Shown: positions 33,001 through 39,000 of the stretch, one piece after another
How the letters are laid out: every line of letters starts with the position of its first letter
How positions within the stretch are numbered: position 1 is the first letter of the stretch
NCBI GenBank assembly: GCA_964106915.2
Contig: OZ066927.1
Direction: 5' to 3' (one strand)
Source: Podarcis gaigeae
Lineage: Eukaryota
Length of the DNA: 64,000 bases
The notes under the pieces: model-generated
The model's database searches: none
The model's input: the letters and a program-made list of their open reading frames with translations, nothing else
What the model was told of the DNA's origin: nothing
Position numbers and translations under genes: made by a program

Positions 33001-36000
33001 AACCTATCCCCTTTGCATTCGATAATGACTTGTTTGTCCCAAATTCCACCTAGAGAGCAAAACTTCAATTTTCCAGATGTAATAAAAGCCATGTTAAATG
33101 TTTTTACGGCTCCATCTGTAGGGATTAGGACTTCACTCTGATTACTTGGCCTCTAACCATTTGTCTTCGTATTTGATGTGCCTGAAATGGTCAGCTAACT
33201 GAAAATGCCATTTGCCCCAATCTGCAACTCTTGTCTCTCAAGTGGGGGTGGGGTGGAGAGCAGTCTCTGAACAGAACCAGAAAAGTAAAAATAAATAAAA
33301 ATAAAATGGCAGGAAGATGCTTGAATACAACTTAATTATAACCACAGTGCTATTATAATTGTTGCTGTTGTTGTTCTCAATGTGGCATACATGGTCTACC
33401 TCCTCCCCATTTTACCCACACAGCAACACTATGAGGTAGGTTAGGCTGAGTGACAATCAATAGCCCAAAGATCAGCATGGATTTATGGATGAGTGAGGAT
33501 TTGGGGCCTGGGTCTCACAGTCTAACTAACCAATACACCAAACTGATTACTGCTTCCCCCAAGGTCCTATCCAGATTGAAAGTAACATAAAGTTGCTCAT
33601 AAGATTTGCTCTCTTTGAAGTTTCACAAGGTGAATCACAGAGAGTTGCATTTTGACAGACAGGTTTAAAAACAGATCCCTGCATGTTACGAAGAAGCATC
33701 CTGTTCCTTTCTAACTCCACAGACTTTCTGAACTTTAGTTTTGTTTTTTAATGCGCAGAAAAAAATTCCTCTTCAGAACCCCCTCGCCTCATTTCGCCAT
33801 CTTAGGGCTCTCGTGGAAAAGGATTTGGGCGCTTCAAAAGGGCAAGAGTACCAAGCAAAGTTACTTCAACTGAAGGTGGAAGAAGAGAAGGCAAAACCAT
33901 TAAGCAAAGTTTAAAAGCTGACCCGAATTAATCTTAGTTTGATTCAAACTGATGACAAAAGCAGCTCATTTTAAGAATATCTGTTGTGGTTTTGTATATA
34001 ATGACTATAGCAATGTTAACAGAACCAGCTGGACACAAGCAATTGTGTTCAAGATGGATGAAGTTACTATGGTATACCATATCCATCTCTCTTATCTCAC
34101 AGTCATATCAGGTCAAATCAGACTGGCAGGCTTGTGAGGCATTATGCCACCTTTTCCAGCCTTCCTGGCACTCTCCAGATCTATTTTGGACTGTAACTCT
34201 TATCAGCCCCAGTTGAGTCCTTCCCAGTCTTATCTAACCCATGGAAGTTGTAAGTCCAATACATTCGACAGGTTCCAGGTGGGATACAGCTGCATTGCAA
34301 AAAAAAAAAAAAAATCAGCAAATTCCCCAGATCTCTTGTTTTGTTTTGACTTATTTTGTTGTTGTTTTATGGTTTCAGGTTGTATTTTGGTTTTAATGGA
34401 TATTGTTTTGCTATTTTATAAAGTGTCCACGACTTAAAGATTTCAAAAATAATTAAAAAAAGTGGTTTAGAAACACTTTTAAATGAAATAAATAAATGAA
34501 ATAGATGCATTATGGGGCAGAGTGTGCTCAACATAGGCCTGTCTCGTAACACCTCCAACAACTATCCTAAATTGATAGATTGAATTTGTACTGAAGACTT
34601 GTCTGAACAAGCTATGTGCTGCCTGTGGGGTTTGCTTTTAAGGAAACACATATAGGGCCGTATTCAACAATAGTCCTACTCATAGGAGATGTACTGAAAT
34701 TAGAGGACATGGCTAAGTTAGGTCCACACATTTCTAAGGGTACAAACGTAGTTGGACCTAGCTGAAAATAACCCATAGGGCTGTTATAAAGAAGCTTGGC
34801 ACAACAAGCGATGATAGGGCTGTCATACGTCCGGTGTTTTGTCCTGGATCAATTAAAAAAAGTGCTTGTTTGGCATTTGTATAAAAAACACTCAACAACT
34901 TTATAGTTGCTCTTTTTGCTTTGGCGGCCAAAAAGCTAAGAAAGAAGACCTTGAACAACACAGCAGTGAACTGTAAGGGAGACACAGGGATCTAAACAGA
35001 GACCATTATTTGTGATGCAACAGCCCTTTTACTTCTTAAGACCCCTATGTATTTTTGATTCAGATGTTTCATGTCCAACGGCTAGTACAAGAAAGTTATT
35101 TGAATTCGAAAAAAAGCTCAACAACTTTCAGGGTGTCCTGGTTTTTTTTACTTTTTGAAATATGGCACCCTAATCAATGAATGCAGGGAAATAAAGTCAG
35201 AGAAACTTTGGTTTTGATTCAAGCTATGTGTGTGAATGCTAGGGGTGGAAGGCCCTATTAATTTCAGTTTTCCTGGTGTCAGGACTGCCGCTAGGTCCCA
35301 GCTCACAGAGGACCAACGCCCAGTGGATATTATATACAAAAGTCTTTATTGAAGTTTGGTTTCCATTTCCAAGCTCTGGGCGCGCAGGCCCACGTCTTAA
35401 CGCTAGACCGGCTAAGTCCCCTCTGACTCACTGCTCCACCCACACCAGTTTAAGATTCTAGCCCGGCTCCACCTCTTGCGCTGCTCTTTCCTGCGTTGGG
35501 TCCTTCTGCCCTCTGGGGTTCCCTCCTTCCTGGACTCCTCTGACGCGGAGCCTCCTGAGTCTTGCCCCTCCCTCCGGCGGGCTTTAGGACCTGGCTCCCT
35601 TCCCGGGCTCCCCGCTGTGCCGCGCTCCTGTACATTTGAACTTGGCGCGCGCGCCCAGCCGGTGACTTTCCTTCTGACCGTTTCCCCGCTTCCTGATGTG
35701 GGTGTTGCCAAACCTGACTCCTCTCCTCCCTCTGGTGGTGAGGACACTGGTCCCGACTCCTGGGACTCCCCCTCCCCACTGCGCTCTGGTGGAGACGCTG
35801 GCCCTGATCTCCAGCTGCTGTTCAGGGACTCCCCGCTGGCCCCTCCCTCTTGAGGTTTCTCCCTTGGAATCTCCCTTGCTCTGGCCACCGGCGCTCCCTT
35901 CTGTGAGTCCTCCGATTCGCTAGAGAGGCTTGTGGAATAACTCTGGCCACTGTCACTGCCTGCGCCCCCCTCGTACTCCTCCTCCTCACTCTCCATTTGC

Positions 36001-39000
36001 TCCCCCTCCTGTGTCTCTCCTTCTGAACCCCTGACACCTGGTTTCTGATTTTTCTAATCTTAAATTCCCCTCTTCACATTTTACAGCAATTTGTTTTTTC
36101 TGCAATATAATACAGTGGTACCTCTGGATGTGATCGGGATCCGTTCCGGAGCCCCGTTCGCATCATGAACAGAACGCAACCCACGTCTGCACATGCACGG
36201 GGCGCGGGTTGCTGCATCTGTGCATGCGTGTGAAGTCATTCTGAGCATCTGCGCATGCGCGAGTGGCGAAACCCAAAAGTAACCCATTCCGTCACTTCCG
36301 GAATGCAAACTGAAGATTCAACCTGAAGCAAACATAACAAGAGGTATGACTGTATAATGCATTTCTTAGTGCTATCTTCACTGATATCTTCATTTTCACG
36401 CACCTTTTCCTCTAACATGTGTGTTTTTGTAGACATTGTTGGCTGGAAAACTGCACTGCAAAATTCAACTAAGTGTGAATTTTGAAGGATAGTTGTGTTC
36501 GTGTGTGCGTATTGCACATTTGAAAGATTTGGCTTTAAATGTGTACTGAATCAAATTCCTTCTCCATCCCTAGTAAAGACCAAAGGGGTTAAGCCTTAAT
36601 CAAGGTAAACAAGAAGTGAGGACTCTTTGGCCTTCCAGATGCTGTTGGAATCCCAACACACATCAGCCCCAGCAAGCTGATGGTGTCAGGGATGATAGGA
36701 ACTGTAGTCCATCGACACCAGGGGACCCAAGGAAGTACAACTCAAATCAGCCCCATCTCTCATGGCCAGTGGTCAAGGACCATGGGAGTTGTAGTCTATC
36801 AACATCTAGAGGGTCACAAACTCCCCATCCCTGGATTCACCTATATGACAACGCATAAATGCAACACACACCACTGTTCCATACTAAATTACAACCAGAA
36901 CCTGAAATATTAAGCACAACTTAACTTACCTGGGGGTCTTGTGTGCTGAACACTTTCTCTGGAGAGATGAGGGAGAAGTTGTAAGCAAAAAGGAGCAGTA
37001 AAGCCAAGGGCACCATGTACAAATCAAAATGCCAAACCGTGACAACGAATACCTAAATGAAACAAAGGAAGACAGAAGGGGCTATTTACATCATTTGATG
37101 AAAAGAAAAGAGGGGAAGGAAGAAAAGGGAGGTGTGAAGAACAAAGCTTCTGACTCTTCATTCCTATGTGCATCCTTGAAGCTTCGCTAACCTCTGATCT
37201 CTCCCACTTTTGCATTCATGGGAAGATAATCACTTTGGATGTTTCCATGTTCCAAGTGCACCACGTTAGAATTGTTAGCGTTACCTTCTACTTTTGATTT
37301 TATTCTCATTGTAGGGATGTACAATTATGTAAACAAACAAGAAAAGAGAGACCTTGATGAAAGTTGAAAAAAGCAAGAGAGAGAAAGAACAAGGGGGGGG
37401 GGTGGAATGGAACACTCATTGAAACTGTATAGAAGAAATGCCTGTCACCTGCAGAACCACAGTAAAAAAAAGATGTCAGGAGCCAGGATGCCATCTTGAT
37501 AACACAGCACTCAAGTTGTAATTAGTTTAAAGATTGATTGCAATACAAACACTCAGCCTCGGACACCTATCTGTATGTCCATGACTTATGAATCGGTTGA
37601 CCCTTCTGGAGAGCGATTCCGGTTATGGCACAATATCCGGACCCTATGCCCTTTCTGTTTCCAACTTTGTTTTCTAAGACCTTTCCCATATGTCTGCTCC
37701 TTGAATGAATTAACTCCCCTTACAGTGTGGAACTGCTTTCCCTCTCCCCTTGCCTGTGTCACTTGAGAGAGTTGGTTGCTGTCTAGCACACTCTCTGCAT
37801 TCCTGTCATTCTCAAAGTGAGGGGAGTTGATAAATTACTGTTCACAGCTGTCTGGGAAGAATGCAAGCCTCTCTCTTGTTGGCTGCTTCCTGACTCCTCT
37901 TGAGCTCTTATACCTCGGGGAGAAGTGTTCATGACAAAGGATGTCTCCTATCTGATTGTTTTCGTTAGACATGAGCCATGCTGTTATAATAATAATAATT
38001 TATTATTTATACCCCACCCATCTGGCTGAGTTTCCCCAGCCACTCTGGGCAGCTCCCAATCGAGTTAAAAACAATACAGCATTGAATACTAAAAACTTCC
38101 CTAAACAGGGCTGCCTTTTAAAAATAGGATAGCTGCTTATTTCCTTGACATCTCATGAGAGGGTGTTCCACAGGGCGGGTGCCACTACCGAGAAGGCCCT
38201 CGGTCTGGTTCCCTGTAACCTCACTTCTAGCAATGAGGGAACTGTCAGAAGGCCCTCGGTGCTGGATCTCAGTGTCCTGGCTGAACAATGGGGGTAGAGA
38301 CACTCCTTCAGGTATACAGGACCGAGGCTGTTTAGGGCTTTAAAGGTCAGCACCAACACTTTGAATTGTGCTCGGAAACGTACTGGGAGCCAATGCAGAT
38401 CTCTCTGCATTACTCATTCAGGGCCAAGAACATAAGAAGAACCTTTTTGGATCAGGCCCATGCCACATCTACTCTAGCATCCTGTTCTCACAGTGATGCC
38501 CATGTGAAGCCCACAAGAGCCCTCTCCCCCTCTGTGGTTTCTAGCAACTGGTATTCAGAAACATTACTGGCCTCTATCATGGCTAGGAGCGATTGATAGC
38601 CATGAGTTTGTCCCATTCTCTTTCAAAGCCATCCAAGCTGGTGAGTGTGAGTTCCATATTCATGTTCATTCTGCTTCCCAAAGTAGCCAGTATAGGAGAG
38701 CCAGTATGGGGAACCTCAGGTCTGGAGGCCACGTGGAGCTAGTCACACCTATCTGGCCCTTGGGACTCCCCCACAAGACGTACTCCTTCCTGAGTCACAC
38801 CCCTCACCAGGTCACCCTCCTCCAGTGCTTTCGCCTGTGTGCAATTTGTCCTTGAACTCCAAGAGTACTTCTTGTTGGGAGGGTAGAGAGGGGAGTATGA
38901 GTTTCTGTAGAAATTGTACAAAAGATAGCAATCACATTCAGTGTTCTTTCCACTTCTGCCTCTGGACCCAAGCACCCCATGACATATGGCCTCCAAATGG

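Follow-up and report, generated by a model that had tools for sequence, protein, structure and literature searches.

Among long terminal repeat (LTR) retrotransposons, a pol frame extending into the 3' LTR is described from plants, namely in the centromeric retrotransposons (CRM) of group A, the LTR of which codes for the CR targeting motif, and in some Beta Reina-type elements (PMC3059260, PMC3605345). The integrase C-terminus probably sets target sites in CRM (PMC3059260) and, in the Ty1/Copia element Tal1 of Arabidopsis, the C-terminal part of the integrase decides integration into centromeric satellite chromatin (PMC11735389). Self-priming and an integrase chromodomain are described traits of another group, Tf1/Sushi (PMC6317226). 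More generally, satellite invasion by LTR elements is reported as widespread and lowest in chordates (bioRxiv 10.64898/2026.09.17.752431), its main text giving no hit for lizard or Podarcis. The present analysis concerns a solo LTR of 760 bp on the minus strand (35277..36036) of a 64,000-nucleotide stretch of Podarcis gaigeae DNA (contig OZ066927.1), hereafter the window, together with the elements from which it derives. These elements, designated family A, are a very young Ty3/Gypsy chromovirus, in which pol almost certainly reads through the 3' LTR into an integrase tail kept by selection.

The extension of pol into the 3' LTR is common to CRM group A and family A. Yet CRM group A is primed by tRNA-Met, whereas family A is predicted to be self-primed, its primer-binding site (PBS) matching its own LTR; CRM group A has the CR motif in place of a chromodomain, whereas family A keeps a chromodomain-like unit 5' of the polypurine tract (PPT); CRM elements inhabit plants, whereas family A has an animal host and a tail without Pfam match; and, while CRM are centromeric retrotransposons, only A is strongly satellite-enriched among the five families considered here. 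Family A works like CRM group A but differs in its primer and in its motif, the CR motif being compared by description, and is therefore not a CRM element. Tal1 belongs to another superfamily, and its targeting is proven by experiment whereas the case made here is one of correlation. Closer likenesses are found in the Tf1/Sushi group (V clade: Sushi-ichi, Amn-ichi), for which self-priming and an integrase chromodomain are described; self-priming is predicted here as well, the chromodomain is clear in family E and degenerate in A-D, the LTR ends of family A fit the Sushi pattern (PMC3601003) and the sole solved relative of its Gag is PEG10. The element is provisionally best filed as a Tf1/Sushi-type chromovirus. 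For vertebrate members of this group, no description of a 180-360-residue tail running from the chromodomain through U3 was found in the open literature, which covered few subscription papers and no Repbase notes. Literature searches for a vertebrate precedent gave, among the papers listed, only plant work or nothing relevant, and a short read-through may sit in Repbase notes.

From pol into the LTR

In the window, the LTR starts with TGTCAG, ends with CTGACA and is flanked by the 5-bp duplication CCAGG (upstream copy at 36037..36041, downstream copy at 35272..35276, minus strand). A preliminary description, made from the letters of the window, had pointed to a stop-free frame opening at the second base of the LTR; translation of 36035 to 35412 on the minus strand indeed gives 207 codons followed by TAG. 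No family was matched in a Pfam search of the 207-aa peptide. Base composition, raised as a caveat in the same description, was gauged with 5,000 shuffles of each kind: at least 207 open codons turn up in 0.3-0.4% of trials when mononucleotides are shuffled and in 1.8-4.0% when dinucleotides are, i.e., seldom. Composition is as such a poor but possible source of this frame and, since shuffles reach the same length in up to 4.0% of cases, a single copy is suggestive only; what decides the matter is the rest of the family.

The first 29 bases of the family A LTR have 2,571 exact matches in the 1.51-Gb genome. All 40 scored genome matches to the LTR are about 100% identical, several being paired some 5.8 kb apart, and five paired-LTR copies correspond to 6.58-kb elements (one of them 6,587 bp). 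In the copy L031, a 370-aa gag frame accompanies a 1,566-aa pol frame, where Pfam recognises protease, reverse transcriptase, RNase H and integrase (PR-RT-RH-IN) in that order after Gag, plus a Tf2-type SH3 domain. The Ty3/Gypsy hallmarks are thereby present, namely TG...CA termini, a short target duplication, a PPT, and Gag then PR-RT-RH-IN between two LTRs. Both L031 and L034 have pol open through the LTR, over its full 1,566 aa; the junction of PPT and LTR is bridged by one pol codon, and the frame stops at LTR base 623-625, the same stop as in the window. Of the five paired elements, two are fully open and one has a later start; the remaining two carry a frameshift, in one case early in pol and in the other ahead of the LTR. 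Among the 150 scored matches of a chromodomain search, 98 lie in the 1,566-aa frame. Sampled more widely, pol runs in the exact LTR frame through the PPT to base 623-625 at 26 of 30 loci, the other four entering the LTR frame-shifted, and the 207 codons are open in all 30 family A LTRs fetched; these samples consist of the best-scoring and hence youngest copies.

As full-length pol ends at this very LTR stop, the 207 codons (35412..36035, minus strand) are the C-terminus of integrase, i.e., Pol residues 1360-1566 of full-length copies and the LTR-coded half of the tail, and not a separate gene. Of the two products envisaged in the preliminary description, the disordered C-terminal extension of integrase is upheld at the DNA level, pol being continuous across the PPT into the LTR frame, and it withstands all the checks that the description put forward. 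The other, a separate accessory protein from the internal ATG at 35996, was rejected as unlikely, since family C, a sister family presented below, lacks this ATG, which moreover lies upstream of the predicted start of transcription. The copy in the window is what recombination left behind, and no peptide is to be expected from it. In Podarcis muralis, the source of the nearest named proteins, five Pol proteins have the start of the tail, three of them reaching far into the LTR-coded part.

The extent of U3 was deduced from the primer. LTR bases 613-624 can pair with the sequence that follows the 5' LTR, so that the two form a potential self-primer and PBS. In the window, the self-primer stretch (35413..35424, minus strand) includes part of the stop codon and is predicted to be the RNA 5' end; its 12 nt are complementary to the PBS found in full-length copies. 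The predicted self-primer fold has a z of -2.64, with equal stability in 2 of 200 shuffles; primer and PBS change together among families A, B and D, and their computed pairing spans 10-12 nt in five of six elements examined, one with a mismatch. With the self-primer and RNA 5' end so placed, U3 is predicted to comprise LTR bases 1-612 (35425..36036, 612 bp), coding from base 2 to its end with the stop just inside R. A TATA-like TTAAA (35449..35453, minus strand), 29 bases 5' of the predicted start and common in position to A-D (TTAAG in C), overlaps codons of the tail and may act as promoter element. The polyadenylation signal AATAAA (35345..35350, minus strand) is kept in families A-D. Promoter and self-primer would thus both lie at the end of the frame, making essentially all of U3 coding, and a solo or 5' LTR is predicted not to transcribe the frame from its own promoter.

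Of the surrounding DNA, a short inverted-repeat element resembling a miniature inverted-repeat transposable element occupies 36106-36353, about 70 bases from the LTR, and the rest of the window is non-coding DNA rich in short and long interspersed elements (SINE/LINE).

Selection on the tail and its motifs

Three sister families, B, C and D, with LTRs 61-83% identical, were found at chromosome ends and then sampled. The open LTR frame counts 210 codons in 27 of 27 parsed family C copies (three more being mis-parsed), 210 codons in 21 of 29 of family B (one more mis-parsed) and 232 or 224 codons in 18 of 28 of family D (two more not parsed). Family C has an intact pol read-through of 1,548 aa and family D an open frame of 790 aa from integrase to LTR; all four family B elements fetched are broken. 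The same layout is met in a distant family, E, with a 180-residue tail of which 96 codons are LTR-coded in 30 of 30 loci. The gag/pol overlap (L031:2080 and equivalents) is in a -1 arrangement, with the heptamer GGGAAAC in B, C and D and GGAAAAC in A, resembling the frameshift site of PEG10.

Ratios of nonsynonymous to synonymous substitution rates (dN/dS, omega) were obtained from one natural copy per family for A-D, so that the six pairs are not independent. In all six, dN/dS of U3 is 0.25-0.34 (bootstrap intervals inside 0.13-0.50), whereas the shifted sense frames give 0.67-1.57; the other sense frames of U3 contain 2-10 stops each. The U3 frame shows third-position bias, and its gaps in a frame-blind alignment measure 3, 18, 24, 45 and 63 bases, all multiples of 3, whereas those of R-U5 are single-base only. 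A codon model fitted by maximum likelihood gives an omega of 0.31 for the U3 frame; when the differences between A and B were placed at random (2,000 runs), the mean was 0.75 and the minimum 0.34, versus the observed 0.31, and the frame stayed open in 3.3% of placements. The internal half of the tail has a dN/dS of 0.25-0.38, and the enzyme domains 0.04-0.08. Synonymous rates are alike throughout and, as dS of U3 is close to that of pol, the constraint acts on the protein. The tail stretch is under purifying selection across the four families A-D, and the alignment of LTRs suggested in the preliminary description accordingly returns a dN/dS below 1 (about 0.3) and frame-preserving indels in U3. 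An IQ-TREE run with omega fixed at 1 left the likelihood unchanged and was not used.

Upstream of the tail, the chromodomain region of family A has no Pfam match, a weak HP1 match (E 0.71) and a weak ESM Atlas lead (0.75); at the same position, the chromodomain of family E is clear (HP1, E 4e-6) and keeps the central Trp. In A-D, all three cage aromatics are lost, yet dN/dS is about 0.04-0.06. Directly after the chromodomain comes a near-invariant F-x8-FxGF block, in A-D as well as in the five P. muralis proteins. The pattern F-x8/9-FxGF, picked after the data were seen, occurs once in family A and twice in family E, with a chance of 0.1-0.2% per shuffled tail; in E, both motifs have acidic linkers and the first lies at the same offset as in A. 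A low-confidence model predicts a helix over the residues upstream of FxGF. A hydrophobic helix, a linker of 8-16 residues and FxGF make up the TND-interacting motifs (TIM/IBM) of IWS1, KMT2A and JPO2, motifs that need their FxGF to bind LEDGF and HRP2 (PMC9987994), and the same pattern fits A, E and their relatives. The FxGF motif of the tail thus resembles LEDGF/HRP2-binding motifs, with the difference that TIM/IBM belong to host proteins and the tail to a retrotransposon integrase, its linker being acidic in E and relatives and Ser/Thr-rich in A-D. Lentiviral integrases, which bind the same host domain, do so through a folded surface. Among the papers listed by a literature search on LEDGF motifs, none concerned a retrotransposon. 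A model of the lizard LEDGF domain bound to the FxGF peptide of family A, built without alignments or folded controls, scored 0.08 and decides neither way; a fold search with the chromodomain-plus-motif model gave no match, nor did ESM Atlas for the tail of family E.

Among more distant proteins, three of 61 matches with a retro-type chromodomain end have FxGF by pattern and one more by eye. P0183, P0137, P0135 and P0216 (three named from Podarcis muralis) present a textbook acidic helix-linker-FxGF motif after the chromodomain, P0216 having also a basic L-L-C-W end; many other chromodomain-protein matches bear, in place of the long tail, short, AT-hook-like tails of PRGRP type.

The basic cluster with which the peptide was first seen to end proves conserved in families A, B, C and E: the stretch closing the LTR-coded part (motif R-x-R-x-S-x4-L-x-W, 35445..35507, minus strand) has seven invariant positions across them, in an alignment including relatives of family E. 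It may serve as nuclear localisation signal (NLS) or chromatin tether; no matching solved structure was found for it. A likeness to the CENP-C motif was dropped after a motif profile found no CENP-C/KNL2 chain in the PDB at E <=10, and so was a PP1 RVxF motif, which fits A, B and D, not C or E.

Accumulation at one chromosome end

Contigs C1-C3 contain 129 identical chromodomain matches, and 53 of them fall within the terminal megabase at a single end of each chromosome. There, a satellite with a period of about 510 bp was met; it is present at one end, never both, of 16 of the 20 chromosome-size contigs, each end being probed at one to four spots; at this sampling none was seen on C17, C21, C31 and C32. 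The satellite is AT-rich, about 505-511 bp long with variants of 451 and 491 bp (L078, L081 and many contig ends), and forms, on most chromosomes, an array that starts at one telomere and extends inward over a few hundred kb. It had no match to a named lacertid satellite, and a 170-bp subunit was not seen within it.

Of 40 ten-kb segments fetched, 20 contained more than 500 bp of satellite. These hold 17 family A LTR matches (16 at 98% identity or more), amounting to about 15% of their sequence and to a density of 85 per Mb. Over the first 90.7 Mb of C1 the density is 1.1 per Mb; the resulting enrichment of about 77-fold is somewhat high, since the C1 figure comes from exact 29-mer counts. The other 20 segments contain nine family A matches; all of these segments are close to chromosome ends, and two of them lie where an array ends. 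An unplaced 510-bp satellite contig contains six in 50 kb. Since the insertions occupy 23 monomer sites in both orientations, with target duplications wherever both ends were seen, they are mostly separate integrations, although a recurrent site was seen and some copies may stem from duplication of the array. No family A insertion was found in 150 kb of a 185-bp satellite, C20 and C27 (L306-L320) being pure 185-186-bp satellite contigs devoid of insertions of these families over that length. Family C clusters at the satellite ends of C1 and C2.

Lacertini have 36 acrocentric chromosomes (PMC10654178), which is why an array restricted to one end probably lies at the centromere or beside it; subterminal satellites of the short arm have also been described (PMC7397244).

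LTR starts were also seen at chromosome ends directly inside telomere-type repeats, 37 of C-type and 14 of A-type (e.g., L085:3967, L087), compared with 839 starts of family C and 2,571 of A-type counted by a longer pattern. These insertions, which may point either way, all use one 5-bp site of the repeat, and those with both ends visible have a target duplication. That family C targets telomeres specifically was rejected, the 5-bp site fitting a general target preference and most copies being interstitial. At the very ends of C8 and C1 (L080, L072), telomere repeats directly cap truncated elements of families A and C. Matches of B and D, the older families, are in excess on the 29.5-Mb contig C32, as a W chromosome would be expected to show.

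What the tail may do

The account that in our judgement probably holds is that of a read-through tail of some 360 residues, maintained by selection and likely acting as a chromatin-docking arm. RNA would start near the equivalent of window position 35424 in the 5' LTR and prime its own reverse transcription; Gag-Pol would be made by -1 frameshifting; and the protease would release an integrase bearing the degenerate chromodomain, the helix-linker-FxGF, acidic Ser/Pro-rich spacers and the basic R-x-R-x-S-x4-L-x-W end. The tail motifs would then bind host chromatin proteins, LEDGF/HRP2-type domains in the case of FxGF, and aid nuclear entry and site choice. The docking role is itself probable.

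Several observations weigh against this account. With an omega of about 0.3 versus 0.04-0.08 in the enzyme domains, much of the tail may be spacer. Cut-short LTR frames recur in the older families (8 of 29 in B, 10 of 28 in D), several by the same slip, and such frameshifted copies imply either that the tail is dispensable in cis or that slippage occurs at G runs. The FxGF linker is Ser/Thr-rich rather than acidic in family A, as in B-D, and would be acidic only if phosphorylated; in A-D, moreover, the TATA-like element shares sequence with the codons of L-x-W. As to targeting, the tail-bearing family E is dispersed, with one of 46 matches near a satellite end versus 53 of 129 for A, and no B, C or D LTR was matched in the 20 satellite segments. 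Possession of a tail alone does not make a family satellite-seeking.

That the tail causes family A to target centromeres, the array being truly centromeric, is accordingly possible and, on balance, doubtful, because dispersed families share tails and the degenerate chromodomain is an equally good candidate. The same reserve applies to the wider proposal, entertained here tentatively, that lacertid chromoviruses built a CRM-like arm independently of plants, in the form of a LEDGF/HRP2-mimic tail encoded by the whole U3 and steering family A to centromeric satellite.

The foremost competing explanation, which we regard as rather unlikely, is that the tail is translated, yet is just a nuclear-import signal with a flexible spacer, the accumulation in satellite stemming from the altered chromodomain or integrase core. 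The basic C-terminal cluster is indeed the most obvious feature of the tail, and the chromodomain of A-D is strongly conserved despite having no cage aromatics, the central Trp being kept in the dispersed family E. An NLS, however, needs neither an invariant FxGF block nor several conserved internal motifs, and the degenerate chromodomain is common to A, B, C and D, the distributions of which differ. Far less probable is a tail cleaved off by the element protease to become a separate accessory protein, e.g., for anti-silencing or RNA packaging: in retroviruses, proteins encoded in U3 have accessory roles, as do Nef and Sag, and the long low-complexity linkers could hold cleavage sites, but the tail directly follows the chromodomain, the usual place for targeting motifs (PMC3059260). 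Finally, it is scarcely credible that the open frame merely results from U3 being T-poor, purine-rich and under promoter constraint at the DNA level, for although dinucleotide shuffles attain 207 codons in up to 4%, the third-position bias, the omega of 0.3, the strictly in-frame U3 indels, the 2-10 stops in each other sense frame and the frame surviving just 3.3% of random A-B placements refute it unless the alignments are wrong.

With a selected, read-through tail as the preferred reading, family A is a vertebrate LTR retrotransposon whose whole enhancer-promoter region codes for protein and is under selection; the descriptions found of such a layout all concern plant chromoviruses. Family A also floods one terminal satellite, at about 15% of the sampled array, when its close relatives do not, which is rare for an LTR element in animals. 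Five natural tails make the question of how retroelements home to centromeric chromatin a testable one. If FxGF binds LEDGF or HRP2, a retrotransposon would have reached the lentiviral host tether by short-motif mimicry; and were the CRM-like arm to prove true, family A would be an active centromere-seeking vertebrate LTR retrotransposon, with its dispersed sister families as natural controls.

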